A DNA stretch of 24,000 nucleotides from Pseudomonas delhiensis (GTDB taxonomy: Bacteria > Pseudomonadota > Gammaproteobacteria > Pseudomonadales > Pseudomonadaceae), in contig NZ_FZPC01000008.1 of NCBI RefSeq assembly GCF_900187975.1, positions 27,930-51,929 on the forward strand, in the 5' to 3' direction. The first letter of the stretch is position 1; each line of letters begins with the position of its first letter. A model generated the notes under the pieces. It saw nothing but the letters and a program-made list of their open reading frames with translations. It had not been told where the DNA came from and made no database searches. A program made the translations under genes and the position numbers. Below are positions 2,783 through 21,717 of this stretch, piece after piece.

Positions 2783-2810
2783 TCCCCTACCCCGACCCGC
2801 TAAGGTCCCC

Positions 2811-4676
2811 ATGCCCAAACGCCTGTTGCCATGGCTGGCGCTGTGCGCCTGCGCATCCCTGCACGCGAGCCCCCAATTCCCCGAATCCCGCCTCCAGGCC
2901 CTGGCCGCGCAGCCCTACTGGCTGGCCCTGGGGCACTACACGCCGAGCAAGCTGGGCGGCTGGCGCAGCTTCGTCGACGACGACCGGTTCTTCCTCGCCG
3001 ACGACGGCGAGCGCTCGCCCGAGCACGAGCTCAAGGCCACCCTGGACGCCCTCTACGCCGCCCCCGACCTGGGCGACAAGCATGCCCAGTGCGTCTACCC
3101 GGCGCGCACCCGCTGGCTGAAGCAGCAACTGCAGCTGACCGACCTGCCGCGCCCCGCGTGCCAGGAGTACGACACCTGGTACGGCGACATCAACCCGCAC
3201 AGCGCGGTGCTGGTGTTCCCCGCCGCCTACCTGAACAGCCCCTCGTCGATGTTCGGCCACACCCTGCTGCGCATCGACCAGGCCGACGTCGACAGCAACA
3301 ACACCGCCCTGCTCAGCTACGCGCTGAACTTCGGCGCCTTCATCGAGGGCATGGACAACAGCATCCTCTACGCCTGGAAGGGCCTGATGGGCGGCTACCC
3401 CGGCCTGTTCGCCCTGGTGCCCTACCGCGAGAAGCTCTCCGAATACAGCCGCCTGGAGAACCGCGACCTCTGGGAGTACCGCCTGAACCTCACGCCCGAA
3501 GAGACCGGGCGCATGGTCGAGCACGTCTGGGAGCTCAAGCAGGTCCGCTTCAAGTACTTCTTCTTCGACGAGAACTGCTCCTTCCGCCTGCTCGAACTGC
3601 TGGAGATCGCCCGCCCCGGGGTGAAGCTGACCGACGGATTCCCGCTCTACGCCATCCCCACCGACACCGTGCGCGCGGTGAAGCAGGCCGGGATGATCGA
3701 CAGGATCGACTACCGCCCCTCGCGGGAGAAGGAACTGCTGGCCCGCGCCGAGCCGCTGGACACCGGCGAGAAACAGCTGGCCCGGCGCCTGGCCGACGAC
3801 GACCGCCTGCTCGACAGCCCCGAATTCAAGGCCCTGCCCGCGCCGCGCCAGGCGCTGGTGCAGGACACCGCCTTCCGCCTGCTGCGCTACCGCGCCACCG
3901 GCAAGGCGCGCGACGAGGCCGATGCCGCGCGCAGCTACCAGTTGCTGCGGGCGATCAACCAGAACCCGCCGCCGCCGGCCCGGGTGGAGCGCCCCGGGCA
4001 ACCGGAGGAAGGCCACCAGTCGCTGACCTGGCAGCTCGGCGCCGGCAGCCGCGACGGCCAGGCCTTCGCCGACTACGGCCTGCGCATGGCCTACCACGAC
4101 CTGCTGGACAACAGCTACGGCTTCCCCCAGGGCGCGCAGCTGGAGCTGGGCGACCTGCGCCTGCGCCAGTACGAGGGCAACCGCTGGCAGCTGCAGCGCC
4201 TGGACCTGGTCAGCATCCGCTCCATGACCCCGCGCAACGCCCTGTTGCAACCGCTGTCCTGGCAGGTCACCGGCGGCTGGGAGCGGGTGCCGGGCAAGCA
4301 CAGCGACGACGGCCACGACACCCTGGCCGGCCACGTCAACGGCGGCGCCGGCGGCAGCTGGAAGCTCGCCGACGACCTGCAGGCCTACGCCCTGGGCACC
4401 GCACGGATCGAAAACAACCCCGACTTCGCCGCCACAGTGGCGCCGGCGCTGGGCTTCGACACCGGCGTGCTCTGGCGCAACCCGCTGGGCAACCTGGCCC
4501 TGGAGGCCAAGGGCGACTACTTCCACAACGGCGAAGTGCGCCGCAGCCTGAGCCTCGGCCAGCAGGTGGAACTGAGCCGCAACCTCGGCCTGCGCCTGTC
4601 CGCCGAACGCCAGTTCAGCCACCAGGCCGGGCCGGTCGGCGAGGTCATGCTGGAACTGCGCTGGTACCATTACTGA
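2811..4676 (+). CDS. DUF4105 (Lnb N-terminal-like) periplasmic/outer-membrane-associated protein
   Basis: 621 aa with signal peptide MPKRLLPWLALCACASLHA. The central SSMFGHTLLRID...YALNFGA...GGYPG...YRL block matches the DUF4105 family as I recall it. The C-terminal alternating, beta-rich segment ends in ...LELRWYHY, which looks like an OM beta-barrel terminus. Confidence 0.75.
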   Translation: MPKRLLPWLALCACASLHASPQFPESRLQALAAQPYWLALGHYTPSKLGGWRSFVDDDRFFLADDGERSPEHELKATLDALYAAPDLGDKHAQCVYPARTRWLKQQLQLTDLPRPACQEYDTWYGDINPHSAVLVFPAAYLNSPSSMFGHTLLRIDQADVDSNNTALLSYALNFGAFIEGMDNSILYAWKGLMGGYPGLFALVPYREKLSEYSRLENRDLWEYRLNLTPEETGRMVEHVWELKQVRFKYFFFDENCSFRLLELLEIARPGVKLTDGFPLYAIPTDTVRAVKQAGMIDRIDYRPSREKELLARAEPLDTGEKQLARRLADDDRLLDSPEFKALPAPRQALVQDTAFRLLRYRATGKARDEADAARSYQLLRAINQNPPPPARVERPGQPEEGHQSLTWQLGAGSRDGQAFADYGLRMAYHDLLDNSYGFPQGAQLELGDLRLRQYEGNRWQLQRLDLVSIRSMTPRNALLQPLSWQVTGGWERVPGKHSDDGHDTLAGHVNGGAGGSWKLADDLQAYALGTARIENNPDFAATVAPALGFDTGVLWRNPLGNLALEAKGDYFHNGEVRRSLSLGQQVELSRNLGLRLSAERQFSHQAGPVGEVMLELRWYHY

Positions 4677-4693
4677 GGCGTGCGGCGCCTCAG
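4673..4693. terminator. Hairpin shared by the convergent DUF4105 and rtcR genes, spanning both stop codons
   Basis: CTGAGGCG (4673-4680), loop TGCGG, CGCCTCAG (4686-4693): 8-bp perfect stem. The TGA of the + gene (4674-4676) and the TGA of rtcR (complement of 4690-4692) both lie inside the stem arms. Confidence 0.4.
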
Positions 4694-6294
4694 CCCTTCA
4701 CGGCCGCCCAATCCAGCCGGAAGCGCGCCAGGTACTTGCGCAGACGATCGGCGTCATTGGGGTTATGCTTCTCCTGGCGCGACACCGCGAACAATTGGCG
4801 GCCGGCGTCGGACAGGCTGCGCGCCTGCCGGCAGACGTCGATCACCGCCTCCAGTTGCAGGCGGTCGAACAGGTCCAGTGCCTCGGCGCCCTCCCCCAAC
4901 AGCTGCCGCACGGCACCTTCCGCTTGCGCGATACCCCAGGAGCGGCGCAGGCGGCCGATCTCTTCCTCCACCAACGCTTCGTCGATGCGCCCGCTGTCGG
5001 CCAAGGTCGCCATGCGCGTGATGGAGGCCGACAGCTCGCGGAAGTTGCCGCTCCATAGCGCCTGCGCCGAGTTGGCGAAAGCCAGGTAGCGCGTGCGCGC
5101 CTCGCGGTTGAAGCGCACCAGGCGGCCCTGCTCGCGGGCATGGCGCTCCAACTCGAAATCAATGTTCGGCTCGATGTCTTCACGACGCCCGGCCAGGCCC
5201 GGCAGGTCGAAGGTCCAGAGGTTGATACGGGCGAACAGGTCCTCGCGGAACAATCCTTCGGCCACACGCTCTCGCAAGTCGCGGTGAGTGCCGGCAATCA
5301 GTTGGAAGTCGCTGCTGACCTCGCGGTCCGAGCCAAGCGGGAAGAAGCGCTTTTCCTCGATGGCCTTGAGCAGCATGGCCTGCTCGTCCAGTCCCAGCTC
5401 GCCGATCTCGTCGAGGAACAGCATGCCGCCATTAGCCCCGCGTAACAGGCCTTCCCGGGAGTTCTGCGCGCCGGTGAAGGCGCCCTTGACGTGGCCAAAC
5501 AACGCGGACATGGCGCCATCACCACGCAGCGTCGCGCAGTTCACTTCGACGAAGCGGCCCTGGAACTGGTGCCGGGCGCGTTTGAGTTCGTACACGCGGC
5601 GGGCGAGGAACGACTTGCCGGCTCCGGTCGGACCGATCAGCAGCATCGGCGCACAGGAGCGCCCGGCGACCCGCTCGATCTGCTCGATGGAGCGGTTGAA
5701 CTCGGCATTGCGCGTGGCGATGCCAGACTTGAGAAAGGCCAGGCTCTCTTCCTGTTCGCGGCGGAACCGCGTGGCGATGCGGTCGTAACGCGACAGGTCG
5801 AGGTCGATCAGCGTCACCGTCCCTTCCGGGTGCCGAGCCTCGTCCTTGCGCCGCGACGGCGAGGCCTGCACCAGCCGCGCCGGCAGGTAGCGCGCCTCGG
5901 TCAGGAGGAACCAGCAGATCTGCGCGACGTGAGTCCCGGTGGTGATGTGTACCAGGTAGTCCTCGCTCTCGGTATCGAAGGTGTAGCCGCCGACGAAATC
6001 GTGCAGCGCGCCGTAGACCTCTTCGAAGTCCCAAGGGTTGCGCAAGGCCATGGGTTGCAGGCGCACCTCGGTCTCCGGCGAGACGTGCCGCACGTCGGCG
6101 GCGATGCGCTCGGCCAGGCTGACGTCCCGCGCATCCAGGCCGTGGATCAGCTCCAGGCGATCGATCAGCAGGTCCTGCTGCTGGCACAGGCCAACCGTGG
6201 GCCGCCACTTCTGCCAGCGCGCTGCGCCCTTGCCGACGCGGTCCAGAGTGGAGCCGAGGAAACCGATGGCGACGGTCTTGCGTCCTGCGGACAT
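4690..6294 (-). CDS. rtcR: Sigma54-dependent transcriptional activator RtcR
   Basis: The N-terminus MSAGRKTVAIGFLGSTLDRVGKGAARWQKWRPTVGLCQQQDLLIDRLELIH parallels E. coli RtcR (MRKTVAFGFVGT...RWSKWRPT...). The central AAA+ domain has Walker A GPTGAGKS and the sigma54-contact loop GAFTGA (KGAFTGAQ). It is divergent from an rsr-rtcB-rtcA operon. Start at 6294 chosen because AGAGGG lies 6 nt upstream; 6300 (ATG) and 6312 (TTG) are alternatives. Confidence 0.9.
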   Translation of the reverse strand: MSAGRKTVAIGFLGSTLDRVGKGAARWQKWRPTVGLCQQQDLLIDRLELIHGLDARDVSLAERIAADVRHVSPETEVRLQPMALRNPWDFEEVYGALHDFVGGYTFDTESEDYLVHITTGTHVAQICWFLLTEARYLPARLVQASPSRRKDEARHPEGTVTLIDLDLSRYDRIATRFRREQEESLAFLKSGIATRNAEFNRSIEQIERVAGRSCAPMLLIGPTGAGKSFLARRVYELKRARHQFQGRFVEVNCATLRGDGAMSALFGHVKGAFTGAQNSREGLLRGANGGMLFLDEIGELGLDEQAMLLKAIEEKRFFPLGSDREVSSDFQLIAGTHRDLRERVAEGLFREDLFARINLWTFDLPGLAGRREDIEPNIDFELERHAREQGRLVRFNREARTRYLAFANSAQALWSGNFRELSASITRMATLADSGRIDEALVEEEIGRLRRSWGIAQAEGAVRQLLGEGAEALDLFDRLQLEAVIDVCRQARSLSDAGRQLFAVSRQEKHNPNDADRLRKYLARFRLDWAAVKG

Positions 6295-6332
6295 GAACAT
6301 CCCTCTATCCAATTTGATAAAATCCTATCCCA

Positions 6333-6356
6333 ATAGATCTAAATATCGATAGATCT
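6333..6356. promoter_or_regulatory. Two copies of ATAGATCT, 16 bp apart: candidate RtcR upstream activating sites
   Basis: ATAGATCT occurs at 6333-6340 and 6349-6356, each with a palindromic AGATCT core, about 95-117 bp upstream of the -24 element. CTATCC also occurs twice (6304-6309, 6325-6330). The assignment to RtcR is inferred from position only. Confidence 0.35.
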
Positions 6357-6407
6357 CGATCACCGAAAAATCCACCCATGTCACTCGAAAATAAAATTAA
6401 TTTTAAA

Positions 6408-6420
6408 AATCAATAAGTTA
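6408..6420 (+). promoter_or_regulatory. IHF binding-site consensus match
   Basis: AATCAATAAGTTA fits WATCAANNNNTTR at every specified position. It lies in a 27% GC stretch (16 G+C counted in 6361-6420), between the candidate UAS and the -24/-12 element, which is the usual sigma54 promoter layout. Confidence 0.55.
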
Positions 6421-6449
6421 AAAATAATTCACGGCTCAAAAATCAAACC

Positions 6450-6465
6450 TGGCACGCTGCCTGCT
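6450..6465 (+). promoter_or_regulatory. Sigma54 (-24/-12) promoter of the rsr-Y RNA-rtcB-rlaP-rtcA operon
   Basis: TGGCACGctgcCTGCT compared with the consensus TGGCACG-N4-TTGCW. GG is at 6451-6452 and GC at 6463-6464, giving the exact 12-nt spacing. It is about 40 nt upstream of the rsr ATG and divergent from the sigma54 activator gene rtcR. Confidence 0.8.
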
Positions 6466-6506
6466 CTATCTCTGGCAACACCAACGAAACAGAGCGAGAC
6501 GGCAAG

Positions 6507-8057
6507 ATGGCCAACACCCGACTGTTCAATACTCTCGATGCCCGCCTGCCGGCCATCGACACCTGCAACCAGAACGGAGCGGGTGCCTATGCCTACGGCG
6601 CACGTCATCAACTGGCGCAGTTGGCAGTCACCGGTTGCCTGAACCAGACCTATTACGCCGATGCCCAGGACCAACTGGATCGCGTACTGGCCCTGGCCAG
6701 CGAGCTGGACGCCGCCTTCGTCACCCGCACGGCGATCTATGCCCGTCAGCAGGGCCACATGAAGGACATGCCTGCGCTGCTGGTAGCGGCTTTGGCGGCA
6801 CAGCGCTCGTCCCTGCTGCCGAGCGCGTTCGCCAAGGTGATCGACAACGGCAGGATGCTGCGCACCTTCGTGCAGATTCTGCGCAGCGGCGCGACTGGCC
6901 GTAAATCGCTGGGCTCGCAGCCCAAGCGACTGGTGCAGGACTGGCTCAACAACGCCAGCGAGCGTCAGTTGCTGCAGGCCGCGGTGGGACGCCAGCCTTC
7001 GCTGGCCGACTTGGTGAAGATGGTTCACCCGAAGCCGAATACGGCCTGGCGCGCAGCCTTCTTCGCCTGGCTGCTCGGCAAACCGGTGGCTGCCGACGCT
7101 TTGCCGCCGCTGACGCGGGACCTGCTGGCCTTCCGCAGCGGAGCCAGCGATGAGCTGCCGGATGTGCCGCACCTGCTGTTGGGCAACCGTCAGTTATCGG
7201 CACAGCAATGGGCCGAGTTGGGCCGGCGCATGGGCTGGCAGGCGTTGCGGATGAACCTGAATACCCTGGCCCGCCACGGCGCACTGGCGTTGCCGGGCGT
7301 GGCAGAAGAGCTGGCGGACCGGTTGGCCGATGCGCAGGCAGTGGCGAAGGCGCGGGTCTACCCGTACCAGTTGCTGACGGCCTATCGCATGGCCGGCGCA
7401 GATGTGCCGCAAGTCATCCGCAATGCCCTGCAGAGCGCGCTGGAACATTCGCTGCAGAACGTACCGGCGCTGAAAGGCTCGGTGGTGGTTTGCCCGGACG
7501 TGTCCGGCTCCATGGGCAGCCCGGTGACGGGTTACCGCCAGGGCGCGACGACAGCGGTGCGCTGCATCGATATCGCAGCGCTGGTCGCCGCGGCGATCCT
7601 GCGTCAGCAGCCACTGGCTCGGGTGATGCCGTTCGAGCGCGATGTGGTGAACGTGCAGCTCAACCCGCGTGACAGCGTGATGAGCAACGCCGGCAAACTG
7701 GCAGCCATCGGCGGCGGAGGCACCAACTGCTCCGCACCGCTGGCACGGCTGGCCGACGAGCGCGCCAGGGTGGATACGCTGATCCTGGTTTCGGACAACG
7801 AATCCTGGATTGATGGAAAACGCCACGGCGCAACGCAAACGCTGCACCAGTGGGAACGTATCAAGCGCGTCAACTCGCAGGCCCGGATGATCTGCATCGA
7901 CATCCAGCCCTACGGTACTACGCAGGCGAAGGATCGCCAGGACATCCTCAACGTCGGTGGTTTCGGCGATGCGGTGTTCGATGTGATGACGCAGTTCGCC
8001 GACGGTCGCTACGACGCACGGCACTGGGTACGGATGATCGAGTCGATGGAGATTTGA
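6507..8057 (+). CDS. rsr: Ro60-related protein Rsr (TROVE domain plus C-terminal vWA domain)
   Basis: 516 aa. The N-terminal two thirds resemble a TROVE domain (NQNGAGAYAY...LAQLAVTGCLNQTYYA...AIYARQQGHMKDMPALLVA). The C-terminus has the vWA/MIDAS motif VVCPDVSGSMGSP and later ILVSDNESW. Position between rtcR and rtcB is the same as Salmonella rsr. Confidence 0.88.
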   Translation: MANTRLFNTLDARLPAIDTCNQNGAGAYAYGARHQLAQLAVTGCLNQTYYADAQDQLDRVLALASELDAAFVTRTAIYARQQGHMKDMPALLVAALAAQRSSLLPSAFAKVIDNGRMLRTFVQILRSGATGRKSLGSQPKRLVQDWLNNASERQLLQAAVGRQPSLADLVKMVHPKPNTAWRAAFFAWLLGKPVAADALPPLTRDLLAFRSGASDELPDVPHLLLGNRQLSAQQWAELGRRMGWQALRMNLNTLARHGALALPGVAEELADRLADAQAVAKARVYPYQLLTAYRMAGADVPQVIRNALQSALEHSLQNVPALKGSVVVCPDVSGSMGSPVTGYRQGATTAVRCIDIAALVAAAILRQQPLARVMPFERDVVNVQLNPRDSVMSNAGKLAAIGGGGTNCSAPLARLADERARVDTLILVSDNESWIDGKRHGATQTLHQWERIKRVNSQARMICIDIQPYGTTQAKDRQDILNVGGFGDAVFDVMTQFADGRYDARHWVRMIESMEI

Positions 8058-8062
8058 AAAGC

Positions 8063-8090
8063 CGTGCTCCGCCAATGAGGGCGGAGCACG
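8063..8090 (+). other. 11-bp perfect hairpin immediately after the rsr stop
   Basis: CGTGCTCCGCC (8063-8073), loop AATGAG, GGCGGAGCACG (8080-8090). It starts 6 nt after the rsr TGA and has no downstream U-tract (CGACAGAATGAATTTCG follows). Confidence 0.5.
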
Positions 8091-8110
8091 CGACAGAATG
8101 AATTTCGCGG

Positions 8111-8229
8111 CGTCATGAATGCCGTCGGGACTACAGGTGAAGCCAGGCCGGCCCTGCCGGTACGAGCGAGCAGGTTCGAGCCCTGCGGCGCGCTTGCGCG
8201 ATAAAGTCCCGGCGAACCTGGTCATGACG
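8111..8229 (+). ncRNA. Y-RNA-like module 1 (T-arm present, no D-arm)
   Basis: Terminal helix CGTCATGA (8111-8118) with TCATGACG (8222-8229). GAATGC at 8117-8122. Second helix CGTCGGGAC (8123-8131) with GTCCCGGCG (8206-8214), including one G.U pair. TACA at 8132-8135. Hairpin CCGGC-CCT-GCCGG (8148-8160). T-arm GCAGG-TTCGAGC-CCTGC (8170-8186). CGCG-CUUG-CGCG capped helix (8189-8200). Confidence 0.6.
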
Positions 8230-8235
8230 AAGCGA

Positions 8236-8321
8236 GGCACGAATGCGCACGGGTGTACATGGTCCAGCCGGTTCGACTCCGGCCCGCAGCGATGCGGATC
8301 ACTCGCGCACCTTGTCGTGCC
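8236..8321 (+). ncRNA. Y-RNA-like module 2 (T-arm present, no D-arm)
   Basis: Terminal helix GGCACGA (8236-8242) with TCGTGCC (8315-8321). GAATGC at 8241-8246. Second helix 8244-8248/8305-8309 and 8251-8255/8300-8304, with an AC bulge. TACA at 8256-8259. T-arm GCCGG-TTCGACT-CCGGC (8267-8283). CCGCA-GCGA-TGCGG helix closed by a GNRA tetraloop (8284-8297). The 3' flank is CCTTGTCG. Confidence 0.6.
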
Positions 8322-8340
8322 ATCCTTGTTGCAACGTTAT

Positions 8341-8471
8341 GCGACGAATGCCGGTGGAACTACACCCTTCCACGGTCGAGATGCGGGTTCGAGTCCCGTC
8401 GGCTCCAATATCAGGGGGGCCGTAGTTCAATGGCAGAACACGAAAATACGTTTCACCCCCCTTGTCGTCGC
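8341..8471 (+). ncRNA. YrlA-like Y RNA module 3 with permuted tRNA-like core
   Basis: Terminal helix GCGACGA (8341-8347) with TCGTCGC (8465-8471). GAATGC at 8346-8351. Second helix GGTGGAAC (8353-8360) with GTTTCACC (8450-8457). TACA at 8361-8364. T-arm GCGGG-TTCGAGT-CCCGT (8383-8399). Loop-closed acceptor-like helix CGGCTCC (8400-8406) with GGGGCCG (8416-8422). TA (8423-8424), then D-arm GTTC-AATGGCA-GAAC (8425-8439). Confidence 0.7.
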
Positions 8472-8500
8472 ACCTTTTCACCCCGCCAGGCCGGCGGACA

Positions 8501-8608
8501 GGCAACGAATGCCTGGGGCAGTACATCGGGTCGCGGGTTCGACCCCCGCTCCGCTCAAACGGGTAGCTCAGTCGGTAGAGCAGATCTGTCCCTCATCTCG
8601 TCGCTGCC
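8501..8608 (+). ncRNA. YrlA-like Y RNA module 4 with permuted tRNA-like core
   Basis: Terminal helix GGCA+ACGA (8501-8508) with TCGT (8598-8601) and TGCC (8605-8608), plus a CGC bulge (8602-8604). GAATGC at 8507-8512. Second helix GGGGCAG (8515-8521) with CTGTCCC (8586-8592). TACA at 8522-8525. T-arm GCGGG-TTCGACC-CCCGC (8533-8549). Short closed helix TCCG-CTCAAA-CGGG (8550-8563). TA, then D-arm GCTC-AGTCGGTA-GAGC (8566-8581), which has the same sequence as a canonical tRNA D-arm. Confidence 0.7.
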
Positions 8609-8635
8609 CCGGCCACACACGAATCTTCGGCATTG

Positions 8636-8765
8636 CCTTGGCGAATGCCGGTGGAACTACATGGACGGAAAGGTTGTGGGTTCGAATCCCGCCGGCTCCT
8701 GGAGCCGTAGCTCAATCGGATAGAGCGCTCTGCACGTTTCACCAGAAACTTGTCGCCATGCAAGG
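8636..8765 (+). ncRNA. YrlA-like Y RNA module 5 with permuted tRNA-like core
   Basis: Terminal helix CCTT+GGCGA (8636-8644) with TCGCC (8753-8757) and AAGG (8762-8765), plus an ATGC bulge (8758-8761). GAATGC at 8643-8648. Second helix GGTGGAAC (8650-8657) with GTTTCACC (8736-8743). TACA at 8658-8661. T-arm GTGGG-TTCGAAT-CCCGC (8676-8692). Closed acceptor-like helix CGGCTC-CTG-GAGCCG (8693-8707). TA, then D-arm GCTC-AATCGGATA-GAGC (8710-8726). Confidence 0.7.
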
Positions 8766-8788
8766 CCAGTGACACAGGAACGAGAGAG

Positions 8789-10009
8789 ATGAACATGAAA
8801 ACCTTCCAGCTACTGGAGGTCGCCAACGGCAAACCGATCAAGCTCTGGACCCAGGGCGTACCGGTGGAAGAAGACGCCAGGCAACAGCTGATGAACACCG
8901 CGAAGATGCCCTTCATCTTCAAGCACCTGGCCGTGATGCCGGATGTGCACCTGGGCAAGGGTTCGACGATAGGCAGCGTGATCCCTACCAAGGGCGCCAT
9001 CATTCCGGCTGCCGTGGGCGTAGATATCGGCTGTGGGATGATCGCCGCGCGTACCTCGCTGGTAGCTTCGGACCTGCCGGACAACCTGCATCACCTGCGG
9101 ACAGCCATCGAGAAGGCCGTGCCCCACGGCAAGACCTTCGGCCGCCGCGACCAGGGCGCCTGGGAAGACGTGCCCGCACACGCCGACGACGCGTGGCGTG
9201 CATTGGCCGGACGCTTCAAGGCGATCACCGACAAGCACCCGAAGCTGGAGAAGACCAACAACCGCAAGCACCTGGGAACCCTCGGCACCGGCAACCACTT
9301 CATCGAAGTCTGCCTCGACGAGGCCGACCGCGTCTGGTTCATGCTGCACAGCGGATCGCGCGGCGTGGGTAACGCCATCGGCAACCTGTTCATCGAACTG
9401 GCCCAGGCCGACATGCGCCAGCACATCGCCAACCTGCCAGACCGTAACCTGGCCTACTTCGAAGAAGGCAGCCAGCACTTCGATGACTACGTGGAAGCCG
9501 TGGGCTGGGCCCAGGACTTTGCCCGGCAGAACCGCGAGCTGATGATGCGCGCGGTGATCGCCGCCGCGCGGCAGGTCATCCGCAAACCGTTCGAGGCCAG
9601 CCTGGAAGCGGTGAACTGCCACCACAACTACGTGCAGAGGGAACGCCACTTCGGCGAAGAGGTGTTGGTGACGCGCAAGGGCGCGGTATCCGCGCAGAAA
9701 GGCCAGCTCGGCATCATTCCCGGCTCGATGGGCGCCAAGAGCTTCATCGTCCGCGGCCTGGGCAACGAGGAAGCCTTCTGCTCCTGCAGCCACGGCGCCG
9801 GCCGCACCATGAGCCGGACCAAGGCCAAGAAGCTGTTCAGCGTGGAAGACCAGGTGCGCGCCACCGCCCATGTCGAATGCAGGAAGGACAAGGACGTAAT
9901 CGACGAGATCCCCATGGCCTACAAGGACATCGACGCAGTGATGGAGGCCCAGCGCGAGCTGGTGGAAGTGCTGCACACCCTGCGCCAAGTGGTGTGCGTG
10001 AAAGGATGA
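8789..10009 (+). CDS. rtcB: RNA-splicing ligase RtcB (3'-phosphate/5'-hydroxyl RNA ligase)
   Basis: ...KLWTQGVPVEEDARQQLMNTAKMPFIFKHLAVMPDVHLGKGSTIGSVIPTKGAIIPAAVGVDIGCGM is nearly colinear with E. coli RtcB as I remember it, and CSCSHGAGR lies near the C-terminus. Start is ATG 8789 (MNMKTF..) or ATG 8795 (MKTF..). The track start at 8750 would overlap Y-RNA module 5 and is rejected. Confidence 0.92.
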   Translation: MNMKTFQLLEVANGKPIKLWTQGVPVEEDARQQLMNTAKMPFIFKHLAVMPDVHLGKGSTIGSVIPTKGAIIPAAVGVDIGCGMIAARTSLVASDLPDNLHHLRTAIEKAVPHGKTFGRRDQGAWEDVPAHADDAWRALAGRFKAITDKHPKLEKTNNRKHLGTLGTGNHFIEVCLDEADRVWFMLHSGSRGVGNAIGNLFIELAQADMRQHIANLPDRNLAYFEEGSQHFDDYVEAVGWAQDFARQNRELMMRAVIAAARQVIRKPFEASLEAVNCHHNYVQRERHFGEEVLVTRKGAVSAQKGQLGIIPGSMGAKSFIVRGLGNEEAFCSCSHGAGRTMSRTKAKKLFSVEDQVRATAHVECRKDKDVIDEIPMAYKDIDAVMEAQRELVEVLHTLRQVVCVKG

Positions 10010-10021
10010 AAGGAATTACCC

Positions 10022-10822
10022 ATGAACAGGGAAGAACGTCATCCACTCCCCGCCGCCATGCGCGAGCGGGTACTGGAGGAACTGAAGAAACTGGAGCAGG
10101 AGCGCGACGTAAGCGTGCTCTATGCCTGCGAATCCGGCAGCCGTGCCTGGGGATTCGCCTCGCCGGACAGCGACTATGATGTGCGCTTCGTCTACGTGCA
10201 TCAGCCAGACTGGTATCTGCGCGTGGAAGAGCCGCGCGACGTGCTGGAGCGCCCACTGACCGACGAGCTGGATCTCAGCGGCTGGGAGCTGCGCAAGACA
10301 CTACGGCTGCTACGCAAATCCAACCCGACGCTGCTGGAGTGGCTGGATTCGCCATTGGTTTACCGCAGCGAAACCGAGGCGACCGACGGACTTCGCCAAC
10401 TGGCGCAAGCCTTCTACTCACCCGCTGCCGCCCGCGCCCACTATCTGTCGATGGCGCGGAAGAACTTCCGTGGCTACCTGCAGGGCGACGAGGTTCGCTA
10501 CAAGAAATACCTCTACGTGCTGCGTCCACTGCTGGCCGTCCGCTGGATAGACCTGGGCCTCGGCATGCCGCCAATGGTATTCGAGACGCTGATGGAAGCG
10601 ACGCTGAAGGACGCCGCCGAGCGCGCTGAAGTCGAAGAGCTGCTGGTACTCAAGCGTCAGGCCGTCGAGGCCGAATACGGTCCCGCGCGCCCAGCCCTGC
10701 ATCGGCTGATCGAGGCAGAACTGCAACGCGCGGAAACCCTTGGCGCACCCCGTGGTGGCTGCCACGGTACGGAGCGCCTGGATCGCTTTCTGCGCGAACA
10801 GGTAAGGAAGTACGCAAGATGA
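10022..10822 (+). CDS. Pol-beta-superfamily nucleotidyltransferase, RlaP-like (RNA-ligase-associated)
   Basis: 266 aa. The N-terminal motif ESGSRAWGFASPDSDYDVRFVYV is a G-S...D-x-D minimal nucleotidyltransferase signature. It matches my memory of the COG3541/PF10127 'RNA repair pathway DNA polymerase beta family'. The gene sits between rtcB (13-nt gap) and rtcA (4-nt ATGA overlap). Confidence 0.7.
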   Translation: MNREERHPLPAAMRERVLEELKKLEQERDVSVLYACESGSRAWGFASPDSDYDVRFVYVHQPDWYLRVEEPRDVLERPLTDELDLSGWELRKTLRLLRKSNPTLLEWLDSPLVYRSETEATDGLRQLAQAFYSPAAARAHYLSMARKNFRGYLQGDEVRYKKYLYVLRPLLAVRWIDLGLGMPPMVFETLMEATLKDAAERAEVEELLVLKRQAVEAEYGPARPALHRLIEAELQRAETLGAPRGGCHGTERLDRFLREQVRKYAR

Positions 10823-11844
10823 ACAAGAACATGATCGAACTCGACGGTGCCGAAGGCGGTGGACAGATACTGCGCAGCGCGCTGAGCCTGGCGATGATCA
10901 CCGGCAAGACGCTGCGCATCGTCAACATCCGTGGCCGGCGCTCGCGGCCGGGACTGTTGCGCCAGCACCTGACGGCGGTACGAGCGGCGGCGAAAATCTG
11001 TGGTGCGACGGTGGAGGGCGCGGAGCTGGGCTCCCTCAACCTGACCTTCCGACCGGGTGCGATTCGCGGCGGTGATTACCATTTTTCCATCGGCAGCGCG
11101 GGTAGCGCCGTGCTGGTTTTGCAGGCAGTGTTGCCTGCGCTGCTGTACGCCGACGGCCCAAGCAGCCTGTCGATCAGCGGCGGCACGCACAATCCGCTGG
11201 CGCCGCCGGCGGACTTCATCGAGCACAGCTGGTTGCCGCTGCTGCGACGCATGGGGGCAAAGGTCGACTTCGAACTGCTACGCCACGGCTTCATGCCCGC
11301 GGGCGGCGGCGAACTGGCAATGCGAGTGGAGCCGGGCGAGTTGCAGCCGTTGCATCTGCCGGAAGCCGGAACCGAACGTTCACGTTCGGCCCGCGCCTTG
11401 CTCGCGGCCATTCCCGGCCATGTGGCGGACCGCGAACTGGAGCGGGTGCGCCGCCATGCGGATTGGCACACAGCGGCCACGCAGGTCGTGCGCCTGCCGG
11501 ACGACCAGGGGCCAGGCAACGCACTGCTGCTGGAGATCGAATGCGAGCACCTGAATCTGGTGTTCTGCGCTTTCGGCCAGTCCGGCGTGAGCGCGGAGCG
11601 GGTCGCCAGTCAGGCGCTGCGCCAGGCCGCCGACTGGTGCGACAGCGGCACCAGCACCGAGGAACACCTGGCCGACCAATTGTTGCTGCCCATGGCGCTG
11701 GCCGGCGGCGGAAGCTTCACCACTCCGGCGCTGAGCGACCATCTGCTGAGCAACCGGGCGGTGATCGAAGCCTTCCTGCCGGCACGCATCGATTGCGAAG
11801 CGCGCGCGAAGGGCGGCCAGTACATCCACATCACGCCAGTTTGA
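10819..11844 (+). CDS. rtcA: RNA 3'-terminal phosphate cyclase RtcA
   Basis: IELDGAEGGGQILRSALSLAMITG...RPGLLRQHLTAVRAAAKICGATVEGAELGS...GGDYHFSIGSAGSAVLVLQAVLPAL...GGTHNPLAPPADF is colinear with E. coli RtcA. The EEHLADQLLLPMALAG block contains the expected nucleophilic His. The start overlaps the upstream stop (ATGA at 10819-10822). Confidence 0.92.
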   Translation: MNKNMIELDGAEGGGQILRSALSLAMITGKTLRIVNIRGRRSRPGLLRQHLTAVRAAAKICGATVEGAELGSLNLTFRPGAIRGGDYHFSIGSAGSAVLVLQAVLPALLYADGPSSLSISGGTHNPLAPPADFIEHSWLPLLRRMGAKVDFELLRHGFMPAGGGELAMRVEPGELQPLHLPEAGTERSRSARALLAAIPGHVADRELERVRRHADWHTAATQVVRLPDDQGPGNALLLEIECEHLNLVFCAFGQSGVSAERVASQALRQAADWCDSGTSTEEHLADQLLLPMALAGGGSFTTPALSDHLLSNRAVIEAFLPARIDCEARAKGGQYIHITPV

Positions 11845-16993: not shown

Positions 16994-17240
16994 GGATACC
17001 TAGCTTCTGGGATGAAAGTGAATGGCCGTCATGGCTGTCGCGGCCGGCGGGCCGGTGTGCCCCGGTACGAGGGGCGCGACCATTGGCCGCGGGCGACGGG
17101 CGAGGCGGGCGACGGCAGGGCCGGACTCGCGGAAACAGGACGCAGCGATCAACGCGCGCGTGCGGCAAAGCTACCGGAATGGACCGTGAAGGGCAAACGA
17201 CGCTCGTCGGCGATACTGGCACTTGGCCCTGCTTCCGGGC

Positions 17241-20200
17241 ATGCTACTGCGCGCCGAACCCCGTCGCCCCGTTCCAGGTAGCCGCTCCTTGTCCAGACCT
17301 CCCCGCCCTCCGGCCAGCCTGGCCCGGCCTGAACGGCTGGCCATCAGGAGCGCCCTGCTGCTGGTGCCGCTGATGCTCGGCCTGCTGCTCTGGCAACTGG
17401 GCCAGGAGTATTTCAGCCAGGCGCGGTTCGAGCGCGAGCGCATCCTGCACCAGAGCCAGGAGCTGGCCCACCAGTTGTCCCTGGCCCTGGAGCTCAAGGC
17501 CCAGGCTGCGCGCACCCTGGCCCGGCAACGCCTGGGCCGCGGCGAGGAGCCGGCGCTGCTGCTCGACGACCTGCGCCAGCTCTATCCCGCCCTGCGCAGC
17601 CTGGCCTGGTACGCCCCCGACGGCGGCAGGCAACTGGACACCGCGCCGGCCAGCGGCGACGACGCCTTCGTCGCCGGCCTGCGGCAACGCGCCGCCGCCA
17701 GCCCCTTCCATTACGCCTACAACGACGCCGATGGCGGCCATTTCTACCTGCTGCTGCGCCCGCAGGACGCCAGCGGCCCCTTCGCCGTGCTCCGCCTGGA
17801 CGCAGCCGAGGCGCGCCGGCAATGGTCCGGGCGGGTCCTGGCCGGCGGCCGCGCCTGGGTGCTGGAAGACCAGGCCGGCCACCCGGTGCTGGCCGCGCCC
17901 GACGCGCCGGCGGACACGCCGGCGGCCATCGCGCCGGAAGCCGTCGAATCGCCGGCGCTGCAGGTCGCCAACAGCGACTGGCATATCCGCCCGCTGGTCG
18001 ACGCGCTCGCTACGCAGCCCAGGGTGCCGCCGCGCCTGCTCGGCGAGCTGGGCCTGCTGCTGTTGCTGGCCGGCATCAGCTGCGCCGCCCTGCTGCGCCT
18101 GCAACGCGAGCAGCAGAGCCTGCGCGCGCAGACCGCCGACTCGCAATCGCGCCTGCGCCAGGCCGCCCAGGCCCTGGCGGCGGTGGACGAGCGGGTGCTG
18201 GTGACGCGCGCCGACGGCCGCCTGGTCTACCTCAACCCGCCGGCGGAGCAGCTGCTGGGCATCCGCGCCGAAGACGCGCCCCTGCACCATCTCGCGCGCC
18301 TGCTGCCGGAGCTGGCGCAGCCGCCCAGCGAGGGCACGCCGCCGGGCAGGCAGTACGTCACCCTGGAGCGCAACGGCCGCCGCCGGCGCTACGCCGTCAG
18401 CCGCCACCCGCTGGAGGAATCCCCGCCCGGCGAGGCGCCCGACTGGGTGCTGCGCGGCCAGCAGGCGCCGGGCGGGCACGTCTGGGTGCTGCGCGACGTC
18501 ACCGAGGAGCAGCGCTCGCTGCAGGTGCTGGAAGAGACGCGGCGGCGCTACCAGGACATCTTCGACGGCGTCGGCGTGGCCCTCTGCGTGCTCGACCTCT
18601 CGGACCTGCAGCGCTTCTTCGCCGACAACGGCCTGCGCGAGGCCGGCCGCCTGCAGGCCTGGCTGGAGCGCCGCGAGGAACACTGGCCGCAGCTGCTGCG
18701 GCTGATCCGCATCAGCGAGGTCAACGAGGTGGCGCGGCGCCTGCTCGGCGTGGAGAGCGGCGAGCAGGCCTGGCGGCAGCTGATCGGCGACAGCCCGCGG
18801 CGCCCCGGCAGCGCCCGCGCGCGCATCATCGAGGCGATCCTCTGCGGCACCGGCCTCATCGAGCAGGAAGTCGCCATCCGCACCGGCCAGGGCGAGCTGC
18901 GCCACTTCTGGCTGCAGCTGCGCATCCCCGAGCACCTGCCGGACTACCGCGCGGTCACCCTGAGCCTGTCCGACATCAGCAGCCGCAAGCAGGTCGAGCT
19001 GTCGCTGATCGAACGCGAGAAGTTCTGGTCCGATGCCGTGCGCGCGGTGCCCGACACCCTGTACATCCACGACATCACCGCGCGCCGGGTGATCTTCAGC
19101 AACCATCACCTGGGCAGCCAGCTGGGCTACGGCAAGGAAGAGCTGGAGCAGATGGGCGAGCGCTTCTGGGAATGCCTGCTGCACCCGGACGACGTCGAGT
19201 ACTACTGGCGCATACGCAACCTGCAACAGGTGGTCGGCGACAACCTGCTGCTGGACAGCCAGTTGCGCTGGCGCCACCGCGACGGCAGCTGGCACTGGTT
19301 CGACATCCGCGAGCAGGCCTTCAGCCGCGCCCCCGACGGCCGCGTGGCGCGCCTGATCGGCGTGGCCAAGGACATCACCGACACGGTGGAGGCGAACAAC
19401 TCGCTGCGCGAGAGCAGCCGCCGCTACCAGATGCTGGCCGAGAGCATCAGCGACGTGATCCTCACCACCGACGCCCAACTGAACATCGACTACATCAGCC
19501 CGTCCATCGAGCAGACCTTCGGCTACAGCCCCGACTGGCTGCTGCACAACGACCTGCAGCAGATCGCCGCCAACCCGGCGCAGCTGGGGCGCCTGCACGA
19601 CCTGCTGGAGCGCGTGCGCGACGCCATAGGCGCGCCGCGCCGGCTGGCCGCCCTGCGCGAGTCCAGCGCGGTGCACCTGTTCACCTTCGACTGCCTGCGC
19701 GCCGACGGCCGCAAGGTCCCGGTGGAGCTGCGCATCGCCCTGATGTGGGACGACTCCGGGCGCTTCGTCGGCCTGCTCGGCGTGGCCCGCGACATCAGCC
19801 AGCAGCGCCGCGCCGAGCGCGAGATGCGCATGGCCGCGACCGTGTTCGAGCATTCCACGGCGGCCATCATGGTCACCGACCCGGCCGGCTACATCGTCCA
19901 GGTCAACGACTCCTTCTCGCGCCTGACCGGCTACGCCGCCGCCGAGGTGCTCGACCAGCAGCCGCGCCTGCTCACCGCCGACCAGCAGGAGGCCAACCAG
20001 CTCAAGCACGTGCTCGACAGCCTGCAGCGCAGCGGCAGCTGGGAAGGCGAGATCCTGCAGAAGCGCAAGAGCGGCGAGCTGTACCCGTCCTGGGTGGGCA
20101 TCACCGCGGTGCAGGACGAGGAAGGCGACCTGGTCAGCTTCGTCTGCTTCTTCAGCGACATCAGCGAGCGCAAGGCCAGCGAGCGGCGCATCCACCGCCT

Positions 20201-21512
20201 GGCCTACTACGACGCCCTCACCCACCTGCCCAACCGCACCCTGTTCCAGGACCGCCTGCACACCGCGCTGATGCAGGCCGAGCGGCACCGCCAGTGGGTG
20301 GTGCTGATGTTCCTCGACCTCGACCGCTTCAAGCCGATCAACGACTCCCTCGGCCACGCCGCGGGCGACCGCATGCTCAAGGAAGTGGCCGAGCGCCTGA
20401 ACCGCTGCGTCGGCGACAACGACACCGTGGCGCGCATGGGCGGCGACGAGTTCACCCTGCTGCTGCCCGCGCTGGAAGACCGCGAGCGCGCGCTCAAGCG
20501 CGCCATCCAGGTGGCCGAGCGCATCCTCGCCAGCCTGGCCCGGCCCTTCACCCTGGAAGGCCGCGAGTTCTTCGTCACCGCCAGCATCGGCGTGGCCCTG
20601 TCGCCCCAGGACGGCGCCGAGCTGAGCCAGTTGATGAAGAACGCCGACACCGCCATGTACCACGCCAAGGAAGTGGGCAAGAACAACTTCCAGTTCTACC
20701 AGGCCGAGATGAACGCCCGCGCCCTGGAGCGCCTGGAGCTGGAAAGCGACCTGCGCCGGGCCATCGAGCAGGGCGAGTTCGTCCTGCACTACCAGCCGCA
20801 GTTCACCGGCGACGGCCGCCGCCTCACCGGTGCCGAGGCGCTGCTGCGCTGGCAGCACCCGCGCCGCGGCCTGGTGCCGCCCACCGAGTTCATCCCGGTG
20901 CTGGAGGAACTGGGGCTGATCGCCCAGGTCGGCGACTGGCTGCTGGCCGAGGCCTGCCGGCAGATCCGCATCTGGCACCGCGACAAGGTGCGGGTGCCCA
21001 AGGTGGCGGTGAACCTGTCCGCGCGGCAGTTCGCCGACGGCCAGCTGGGCACGCGCATCGCCGGCATCCTCATGGAGACCGGCATCCCGCCGGCCTGCCT
21101 GGAGCTGGAGCTGACCGAAAGCATCCTGATGAGCGACGTGTCCGAGGCCATGCACATCCTCTCCGGGCTCAAGCGGCTGGGCCTGGCCATCGCGGTGGAC
21201 GACTTCGGCACCGGCTACTCGTCGCTGAACTACCTCAAGCAGTTCCCCATCGACGTGCTGAAGATCGACCGCAGCTTCGTCGACGGCCTGCCCCACGGCG
21301 AGCAGGACGCGCAGATCGCCCGCGCCATCATCGCCATGGCCCACAGCCTGAACCTGATGGTGATCGCCGAGGGCGTGGAGAGCCAGGCGCAGCTGGACTT
21401 CCTGCGCGAACACGGCTGCGACGAGGTGCAGGGCTTCCTGTTCGGCCGGCCGATGACGGCGGAGCAGTTTGCGGCGCTGTTCTCCAGCAATGCGTTGTTC
21501 CTGCTCGGCTAG
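17241..21512 (+). CDS. morA: Membrane-anchored multi-PAS GGDEF-EAL c-di-GMP signalling protein (MorA-like)
   Basis: About 1420 aa. N-terminal transmembrane segments (ALLLVPLMLGLLLW; LGLLLLLAGISCAALL), several PAS/PAC repeats, a GGDEF domain (RMGGDEFTLLL) and an EAL domain (EALLRW, ELELTES, DDFGTGYSSL, KIDRSF). Size, architecture and position upstream of glyA match P. aeruginosa MorA as I recall it. The start is uncertain: ATG 17241 or TTG 17223, with no clear Shine-Dalgarno. Confidence 0.85.
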   Translation: MLLRAEPRRPVPGSRSLSRPPRPPASLARPERLAIRSALLLVPLMLGLLLWQLGQEYFSQARFERERILHQSQELAHQLSLALELKAQAARTLARQRLGRGEEPALLLDDLRQLYPALRSLAWYAPDGGRQLDTAPASGDDAFVAGLRQRAAASPFHYAYNDADGGHFYLLLRPQDASGPFAVLRLDAAEARRQWSGRVLAGGRAWVLEDQAGHPVLAAPDAPADTPAAIAPEAVESPALQVANSDWHIRPLVDALATQPRVPPRLLGELGLLLLLAGISCAALLRLQREQQSLRAQTADSQSRLRQAAQALAAVDERVLVTRADGRLVYLNPPAEQLLGIRAEDAPLHHLARLLPELAQPPSEGTPPGRQYVTLERNGRRRRYAVSRHPLEESPPGEAPDWVLRGQQAPGGHVWVLRDVTEEQRSLQVLEETRRRYQDIFDGVGVALCVLDLSDLQRFFADNGLREAGRLQAWLERREEHWPQLLRLIRISEVNEVARRLLGVESGEQAWRQLIGDSPRRPGSARARIIEAILCGTGLIEQEVAIRTGQGELRHFWLQLRIPEHLPDYRAVTLSLSDISSRKQVELSLIEREKFWSDAVRAVPDTLYIHDITARRVIFSNHHLGSQLGYGKEELEQMGERFWECLLHPDDVEYYWRIRNLQQVVGDNLLLDSQLRWRHRDGSWHWFDIREQAFSRAPDGRVARLIGVAKDITDTVEANNSLRESSRRYQMLAESISDVILTTDAQLNIDYISPSIEQTFGYSPDWLLHNDLQQIAANPAQLGRLHDLLERVRDAIGAPRRLAALRESSAVHLFTFDCLRADGRKVPVELRIALMWDDSGRFVGLLGVARDISQQRRAEREMRMAATVFEHSTAAIMVTDPAGYIVQVNDSFSRLTGYAAAEVLDQQPRLLTADQQEANQLKHVLDSLQRSGSWEGEILQKRKSGELYPSWVGITAVQDEEGDLVSFVCFFSDISERKASERRIHRLAYYDALTHLPNRTLFQDRLHTALMQAERHRQWVVLMFLDLDRFKPINDSLGHAAGDRMLKEVAERLNRCVGDNDTVARMGGDEFTLLLPALEDRERALKRAIQVAERILASLARPFTLEGREFFVTASIGVALSPQDGAELSQLMKNADTAMYHAKEVGKNNFQFYQAEMNARALERLELESDLRRAIEQGEFVLHYQPQFTGDGRRLTGAEALLRWQHPRRGLVPPTEFIPVLEELGLIAQVGDWLLAEACRQIRIWHRDKVRVPKVAVNLSARQFADGQLGTRIAGILMETGIPPACLELELTESILMSDVSEAMHILSGLKRLGLAIAVDDFGTGYSSLNYLKQFPIDVLKIDRSFVDGLPHGEQDAQIARAIIAMAHSLNLMVIAEGVESQAQLDFLREHGCDEVQGFLFGRPMTAEQFAALFSSNALFLLG

Positions 21513-21560
21513 CGTCAGGATTCCCCTGTAGGAGCCTATCGTACGGGCAGGCACGGCTTC

Positions 21561-21633
21561 TCGTAGGAGCGAGCTTGCTCGCGAATGAGCCCCCCGCTGC
21601 GGAATCTGTTCGCGAGCAAGCTCGCTCCTACGA
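21561..21633. repeat. Perfect 25-bp inverted pair of GTAGGAGCGAGCTTGCTCGCGAA-type REPs (REPIN-like)
   Basis: TCGTAGGAGCGAGCTTGCTCGCGAA (21561-21585) and its exact reverse complement TTCGCGAGCAAGCTCGCTCCTACGA (21609-21633), separated by 23 nt. Confidence 0.75.
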
Positions 21634-21690
21634 AGAGCACTTCGGCGTAGTCGGCAAGACAGTTGCTCCTACGCCATGCCCCCGGCGGCG

Positions 21691-21717
21691 CCTGTAGGAG
21701 CGCGCCCTGCGCGCGAA
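21691..21717 (+). repeat. REP element, type A, second copy
   Basis: CCTGTAGGAGCGCGCCCTGCGCGCGAA is identical to 13464-13490. The downstream flank differs by a single A (GAAATCGCGG versus GAATCGCGGG). Confidence 0.7.

Follow-up and report, generated by a model that had tools for sequence, protein, structure and literature searches.

Five putative Y RNA genes between rsr and rtcB in a predicted RNA-repair operon of Pseudomonas delhiensis

Experimental work on bacterial Y RNAs covers three species, with "at least two" reported in each, and the presence of multiple Y RNAs at one locus is already known in principle. The closest described system is the rsr-yrlBA-rtcBA operon of Salmonella (PMC4201824; PMC7790460), which depends upon RtcR and sigma-54 and is induced by tRNA fragments with 2',3'-cyclic phosphate ends (PMC7790460). 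In Salmonella Typhimurium, YrlA (RF02553) is encoded between rsr and rtcB, on the same strand, and combines a terminal stem carrying a GNCGAAN0-1G region with a permuted order of T arm, acceptor-like stem and D arm, while the smaller Rsr-bound hairpin RNAs encoded beside YrlA are represented by YrlB of Salmonella (RF02565) and Mycobacterium smegmatis and by Yrn2 of Deinococcus radiodurans. Yrn1 of D. radiodurans and the metazoan Y RNAs are about 100 nucleotides (nt) long, with paired ends that form a Ro60-binding stem, a variable apical module that tethers or gates Ro60, and several paralogues per genome (2-4 in vertebrates). Chen et al. (2014; PMC4201824) report 355 YrlA-like RNAs adjoining rsr in 254 bacteria and 22 phages, Pseudomonas fulva included, every copy lying no more than 4 kb from rsr, and state that further Y RNAs escape bioinformatic detection. 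The present analysis concerns a 24,000-nt stretch of Pseudomonas delhiensis (RefSeq assembly GCF_900187975.1, contig NZ_FZPC01000008.1, positions 27,930 to 51,929 of the forward strand), referred to throughout as the window, in which the 731-nt gap between rsr and rtcB (8058-8788) houses five Y RNA-like units, all on the + strand. Judged from its sequence, this spacer probably (at roughly 85%) encodes five distinct Y RNA genes within one RtcR/sigma-54 RNA-repair operon, and we infer that their products would be expressed, processed and bound by Rsr.

The likeness to Salmonella Typhimurium YrlA extends to position, strand, regulators, terminal stem and, in units 3-5, permuted arm order; however, the window has three YrlA-type paralogues rather than one, plus two shorter units, and it carries a gene for an RlaP-family nucleotidyltransferase between rtcB and rtcA. 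The shorter units 1 and 2 have the architecture of M. smegmatis YrlB, which possesses a possible T arm and no D arm (PMC4201824). Their similarity to Salmonella YrlB is weak, as the best match to its model (8231-8326) scores 26.0 bits and does not reach the gathering score of 97 bits, and unit 1 differs further in its large apical insertion. Whereas Yrn1 lies upstream of rsr in Deinococcus and the animal Y RNAs are separate genes transcribed by RNA polymerase III, the five units of the window lie inside one operon. The finding is the correct call of a known element, and not a new kind of system.

Five units and the helices they keep

A preliminary description of this spacer proposed that five repeated units of one layout fill it, and both the pattern and the coordinates assigned to it agree with the sequence. 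The motif GAATGC-N9-TACA occurs exactly five times in the 24 kb (8117, 8241, 8346, 8507 and 8643), always on the + strand and nowhere else, against a chance expectation of 0.02 from shuffles, none of which reached five copies; GGTTCGANYCC likewise occurs five times, with 0.06 expected, and all copies of both motifs fall within 8112-8762. A strict T-arm test, in which five paired bases flank TTCRANY and both strands are read, returned exactly five sites on the + strand (8170, 8267, 8383, 8533 and 8676) and zero on the - strand of the whole window, so that the tRNA-like T loop ascribed to all five units is borne out. The two ends of every unit pair with each other in a terminal stem of 6-7 base pairs (bp), again as proposed, with a single A.C mismatch in unit 4, and this stem and the internal loop, 5' (C/U)GAAUGC and 3' CUUGUC or a one-base variant of it, resemble the Rsr-binding region of YrlA. 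The units are packed head to tail on the + strand with gaps of 4-27 nt, and the array covers the interval from 55 to 705 nt beyond the rsr stop codon, inside the 4-kb, same-strand distance of Chen et al. (2014).

A covariance model (R1) was built from unit 5 and its orthologue in the closest relative, with a hand-written structure; it was seeded in this way because a MAFFT alignment of units 3-5 against each other misaligned their 3' strands and was dropped. With filters off, R1 returned exactly five units from the whole window (158, 63, 43, 26 and 25 bits), the next best match in 48 kb reaching 11.4 bits. Default Infernal filters miss the short units, and the filters-off rerun covered 20 related loci plus the window. 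A hand-written descriptor combining the stem with GAAUG/YYGTC gave 192 wrong-strand matches in 81 sources and was not used for counts.

The proposal of Y RNA-like modules behind rsr in an rtc operon is upheld by matches to the Rfam YrlA model. Unit 5 exceeds the gathering score of 69 bits and is the sole match in the window at that threshold; in a search of the 761 nt from 8040 to 8800 at an E-value threshold, the model also spans units 1-4 full-length (E 5e-14 to 7e-3). The covariance-model check advised beforehand thus succeeded as regards full-length alignment to all five units, and fell short as regards the gathering score in all but unit 5. The orthologues of unit 4 in six related loci (L002, L003, L004, L006, L007 and L030) do score above it. 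Units 3, 4 and 5 contain the complete tRNA-like domain by which Chen et al. (2014) recognise YrlA, namely a T arm followed by an acceptor-like stem and a D arm. Units 1 and 2 have a T arm and no D arm, and would be classed as Y RNA-like rather than as YrlA in the strict sense. The claim of a common layout therefore holds in all five units for the stems and the T arm, and does not hold for the D arm, present only in units 3-5, nor fully for unit 1, in which the T arm lies inside an insertion. On the 5' strand of the terminal stem, the GNCGAAN0-1G signature is exact in unit 3 (GACGAAUG) and unit 5 (GGCGAAUG) and complete except for the first G in unit 2 (CACGAAUG) and unit 4 (AACGAAUG), while unit 1 reads AUGAAUG, with a U-A pair in place of C-G, as do most of its orthologues.

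Those orthologues of unit 1 are hairpins of about 59 nt. The apical insertion (8136-8204), roughly 50-65 nt in length, is confined to the window and the closest relative (L001), and the T arm within it to the window, having been deleted in L001. In unit 1, the window and L001 have the same stem 1 and helix 2 and differ at two bases of the 3' internal loop.

The helices are kept by compensatory changes in orthologues, and every unit is supported, in line with the selection on structure suggested earlier. In a model-fitted alignment of the 150 best R1 hits, 98.1% of cells pair (at most 56% in slid controls), changes on both sides are found at 27 of 27 pairs (590 cells, against at most 116 such cells in slid controls), and the T and D stems are paired in at least 98% of cells. 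Because this alignment leans towards the model, the comparison was repeated on plain MAFFT alignments of orthologues. In unit 2 (18 species), 93.6% of cells are paired, stem 1 is invariant and helix 2 covaries, with 9 pairs changed on both sides as compared to at most 4 in slid controls; in unit 4 (17 sequences), 96.1% are paired, and where stem 1 of the window has A.C, L001 has A-U and the other sequences have G-C. Stem 1 of unit 1 (20 species) is 95% paired, with a covariation score of 0.73 versus at most 0.14 in slid controls. Further, RNAalifold arrives independently at stem 1, helix 2 and a third helix, together with the T and D arms, from 14 unit-5 orthologues. An alternative hairpin of unit 3 (GUGGAA/UUCCAC), present in its minimum-free-energy (MFE) fold, was considered as a conserved switch and rejected, as it is not kept in L002 or L004.

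Arrays at related rsr loci

The comparison drew upon 80 fetched rsr loci plus the window. The closest Rsr, at 95% identity, belongs to an uncultured Pseudomonas genome (L001), and the next, at about 70-76% identity, to Ectopseudomonas, Metapseudomonas and Pseudomonas. Across these sources R1 gave 226 matches at E <= 0.01, of which 226 of 226 lie on the rsr strand and nearly all immediately downstream of rsr. Counted as lower bounds, there is one unit in 12 sources, two in 20, three in 31, four in 11, five in 5 and six in 2. With filters off, five units each were found in L002, L003, L004, L006, L007, L011 and L030, six in L023 and L071, and seven in Labrys (L064) and Undibacterium (L031), with no wrong-strand match at E <= 0.05. 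Of 23 pseudomonad loci, the window counted, 10 have the five-unit array, and the fluorescens-group loci have three units. The repertoire had been thought unusually large; with the same array in these pseudomonads and six to seven units in other Proteobacteria, that claim fails, and arrays of 3-7 predicted Y RNA genes are normal in related bacteria.

Alignment of the spacers gives an identical order of five units, a short hairpin, a T-only unit and three T+D units, in the window, L001, Metapseudomonas otitidis and four Ectopseudomonas species, and positional orthology of the five units extends over L001-L004, L006 and L030, and also L007, L011 and L019. The units of the window share 48-69% identity among themselves, while identity to positional orthologues is 70-87% for unit 2, 79-96% for unit 3 (91-96% to L001, L002, L003, L006 and L030; 79-83% to L004, L007, L011 and L019), 79-94% for unit 4 and 70-88% for unit 5. 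Among the ten five-unit loci, units 2-5 have mean pairwise identities of 0.80-0.86, and rsr DNA one of 0.82. Because identity between orthologues is high and between units low, and units 2-5 match rsr DNA in this respect, the five units are old paralogues under purifying selection, with no recent amplification.

Only one or two units per locus reach the Rfam gathering score, and because standard annotation at that threshold catches just these, the Y RNA repertoire is probably undercounted. It would follow that rsr-rtcB operons commonly encode 3-7 structurally distinct Y RNAs whose order has been fixed over long evolutionary distances, and the conserved paralogue classes may give those who study Rsr and RtcB defined RNAs in which to look for differences in binding partners. 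In the literature searched, which did not take in the supplement of Chen et al. (2014) or a 2018 review, neither arrays of 3-7 units as the proteobacterial norm nor five positionally orthologous pseudomonad classes were found described, and a literature search for YrlC, YrlD, Yrn3 and YrlA2 returned nothing relevant.

Array composition also varies beyond the pseudomonad pattern. The arrays of Undibacterium (L031 5633-6106; L034 5644-5919; L055 5633-6106) open with a run of three to five short-hairpin units, AT-rich and about 60 nt each, after which T-only and T+D units bring the total to seven or more in L031. In two Ectopseudomonas species, insertions of about 240 nt (L003, ~6021-6261) and about 165 nt (L004, ~6017-6181) separate units 4 and 5 and are absent from their relatives.

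Competing readings and a possible mode of action

Several points weigh against five Y RNA genes. The E-values of R1 are rough, and the 150-hit alignment was fitted to the structure of R1 itself. Units 1-4 fall under the YrlA gathering score that unit 5 alone passes. When each unit was folded singly, the MFE structures did not stand out (z -0.4 to -2.7), and for units 4 and 5 the canonical fold was not obtained, for which reasons comparative evidence was preferred. Unit 1 reads CUGGUC where most units read CUUGUC, it is 79% identical to its L001 counterpart as compared to 87-96% for the other units, and its insertion evolves faster. Units 1 and 2, finally, score about 25 bits and are devoid of a D arm. 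These last features would suit a narrower reading, in which the functional Y RNAs are units 3-5 only, perhaps with unit 2, and unit 1, possibly also unit 2, represents a decaying duplicate or a structured spacer that aids processing. Such a reading is additionally in keeping with the absence of the unit 1 T arm from L001, with the rapid evolution of the unit 1 apex, the fastest in the array, and with a T-loop motif of unit 2 that is degenerate in fluorescens-group orthologues. However, the families of units 1 and 2 persist at the same position over 18-20 species, the invariant stem 1 and covarying helix 2 of unit 2 and the strong covariation of stem 1 in unit 1 argue for constraint, stem 1 and helix 2 of unit 1 are unchanged in L001, and short hairpin Y RNAs that do without a tRNA-like domain, YrlB and Yrn2, are experimentally known (PMC4201824). 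The narrower reading is therefore considered unlikely.

Far less probable is that the spacer acts solely in cis, as a structured stretch between two genes by which the translation of rtcB or the stability of the mRNA is adjusted. The units do lie within a polycistronic operon and have neither a promoter nor a terminator to themselves, and a conserved hairpin follows the rsr stop codon. However, every unit is self-closing and bears a protein-binding signature resembling that of YrlA, the homologous RNAs of Salmonella and M. smegmatis undergo processing and persist in stable form bound to Rsr (PMC4201824), the Y RNAs of Deinococcus and Mycobacterium lie upstream of rsr and not before rtcB, and the number of units ranges from 1 to 7 among loci with no loss of rtcB. 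A degenerate tRNA gene cluster, whether of pseudogenes or of tRNA fragments, is more improbable still. The spacer does contain T-loop and D-arm sequences resembling those of tRNA, the Rfam tRNA model gives marginal matches that bridge adjacent units in L004, L006, L030 and L049 (29-33 bits), and several related rsr loci have genuine tRNA arrays upstream. Yet ARAGORN finds 0 tRNA genes and RF00005 has no match at gathering score in the window, the only tRNA-clan match at an E-value threshold within 8040-8800 is to tRNA-Sec (14.3 bits, E = 9.5), the order is permuted (T before D), the cloverleaf and anticodon arm are absent, and selection acts on Y-specific stems. That either spacer open reading frame (ORF), 8119..8772 (217 amino acids, aa) or 8253..8723 (156 aa), is protein-coding is barely credible, as had been anticipated. 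Both are open in a GC-rich window; however, neither has a Pfam match, single-base indels between the window and L001 disrupt them, and the 217-aa ORF gives way to two shorter ORFs (97 and 159 aa) in L001 and has yet another form in L003.

With five Y RNA genes in one operon as the preferred reading, a mode of action may be drawn from work on Salmonella, M. smegmatis and D. radiodurans (PMC4201824; PMC7790460; bioRxiv 10.1101/312249). This model proposes that RtcR senses tRNA fragments with a 2',3'-cyclic phosphate end, whereupon the operon would be transcribed from the promoter at 6450 and the Y RNAs would be excised from the polycistronic transcript. Rsr may then bind and stabilise each Y RNA by way of its terminal stem, while the apical modules may gate Rsr or tether it to partner proteins or RNAs, e.g., PNPase, and the T-loop/D-loop elbow of units 3-5 may mimic tRNA. 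It is possible, though less likely than not, that the units are sub-functionalised Rsr adaptors and not redundant copies. In every paralogue class the stem sequence, size and apical module are distinctive and have been retained, and the order of the classes is constant across pseudomonad genera, as would be expected were each class to tether Rsr to a partner of its own or to present its own tRNA-elbow decoy. Linked to this, and put forward with the same reserve, is the idea that the arrays descend from tRNA-gene arrays. It draws upon the origin model outlined in bioRxiv 10.1101/312249 (citing Sim and Wolin 2018), by which YrlA derives from two neighbouring tRNAs, the first giving the T arm and the second the D arm, upon the bridging tRNA-model matches and upon upstream arrays of up to 15 tRNA genes.

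Those bridging matches, just above the gathering score (L004 5846-5963; L006 5845-5968; L030 5846-5984; L049 5710-5831), each begin in the D arm of a Y unit and end in the T arm of the unit after it, the mirror of the dimeric-tRNA origin idea, and offer a hint of descent from tRNA arrays. Several rsr loci of Burkholderiales and other environmental genomes have 3-15 tRNA genes on the rsr strand, between about 100 nt (L079) and about 4 kb upstream of rsr (L039 293-1501; L041 5-1488; L066 4-1560; L073 818-1501; L077 24-368; L079 773-3745), which points to a possible connection of tRNA arrays with rsr/Y RNA/rtcB loci; the window has no such upstream array.

Operon context and neighbouring features

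By its gene content and order, the locus is predicted to be an RtcR/sigma-54 RNA-repair operon comprising rsr, the Y array, rtcB, rlaP and rtcA (Table 1). The rtcR gene is divergent, and rsr, rtcB and rtcA share one strand behind a sigma-54-type promoter, as expected from the link to sigma-54 made in the preliminary description. The promoter, TGGCAC-N5-CTGCT, has one mismatch to TGGCAC-N5-TTGCW (C at the first T of TTGC), and a search for the exact TGGCAC-N5-TTGCW pattern found no match; among the full-length related loci scanned, 49 have an equivalent motif ahead of rsr, at a distance of 49-119 nt (mostly 50-76). Within 6200-9000 the sole sigma-70-like site (6294-6323) lies upstream of the sigma-54 promoter, and no + strand terminator is predicted between rsr and rtcB. 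The rsr product aligns full-length with D. radiodurans Rsr (2NVO, E = 7e-22), and the end of rlaP and the start of rtcA share 4 nt. The order rtcB-rlaP-rtcA has been described in Pseudomonas (PMC12776372), where, according to a 2025 preprint, RlaP extends damaged RNA 3' ends by one or two nucleotides.

Table 1. Positions in the window of the five putative Y RNA units, their helices and the surrounding operon features.
Feature	Position	Strand	Structural elements	Scores and remarks
rtcR, divergent sigma-54 enhancer-binding activator	4690..6312	-		Pfam RtcR 1.9e-85, Sigma54_activat 5.6e-49
Sigma-54-type promoter TGGCACgctgcCTGCT	6450..6465	+		42 nt upstream of rsr ATG
rsr, Ro60 orthologue	6507..8057	+		Pfam vWA_Ro60 and TROVE
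GC-rich hairpin GTGCTCCGCC-aatgag-GGCGGAGCAC	8064..8089	+	10-bp stem	7 nt past rsr stop codon
Unit 1, short-hairpin-type Y RNA-like, expanded apex	8112..8231	+	stem 1 8112-8118/8222-8228; helix 2 8123-8132/8205-8214; apical insertion with hairpin 8148-8160, T arm 8170-8186, hairpin 8188-8200	YrlA 26.2 bits; R1 25.8 bits, E = 7.5e-06
Unit 2, Y RNA-like, T arm without D arm	8236..8324	+	stem 1 8236-8242/8315-8321; helix 2 8250-8255/8300-8305; T arm 8267-8283; hairpin 8284-8297	YrlA 24.9 bits; YrlB 26.0 bits
Unit 3, YrlA-type	8341..8474	+	stem 1 8341-8347/8465-8471; helix 2 8353-8359/8451-8457; T arm 8383-8399; acceptor-like stem 8400-8422; D arm 8425-8439	YrlA 54.6 bits, E = 1.7e-11, full-length
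Unit 4, YrlA-type	8502..8610	+	stem 1 8502-8508/8601-8607 (one A.C mismatch); helix 2 8514-8520/8587-8593; T arm 8533-8549; acceptor-like stem 8551-8562; D arm 8566-8581	YrlA 63.3 bits, E = 5e-14
Unit 5, canonical YrlA	8638..8762	+	stem 1 8639-8644/8753-8758; helix 2 8650-8656/8737-8743; T arm 8676-8692; acceptor-like stem 8693-8707; D arm 8710-8726	YrlA 88.0 bits, model positions 1-114 (full-length)
rtcB, RNA 3'-phosphate ligase	8789..10009	+		Pfam RtcB 1.5e-131
rlaP, RlaP-family nucleotidyltransferase	10022..10822	+		Pfam RlaP 5.8e-96; between rtcB and rtcA
rtcA, RNA 3'-phosphate cyclase	10819..11844	+		Pfam RTC 1.4e-77

The hairpin that follows the rsr stop codon has no U tract and was not called by terminator prediction. 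Its stem shows fully compensatory changes, and its CAAUNG-like loop is conserved, in L001-L004, L006 and L030, while many other loci have unrelated GC-rich hairpins at the same position; it could be a 3' protective or processing element of the rsr message. Two copies of ATAGATCT, 16 nt apart (6333-6356), are present within the AT-rich stretch between rtcR and rsr, about 100 nt before the sigma-54 promoter; this sequence is a candidate binding site for RtcR or IHF.

Farther out, very long ORFs overlap on both strands at 17223-21697 and 2787-5089. Pfam gave no match at E <= 1e-3 for 2831..5089 on the + strand and 2787..4670 on the - strand, and none at E <= 1e-5 for 17244..21554 on the - strand, which the + strand ORFs 17223..21512 and 17822..21697 overlap. 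The flanking genes are ordinary chromosomal ones, namely those for a cytochrome c peroxidase, a glutamate dehydrogenase and an ABC-F ATPase.

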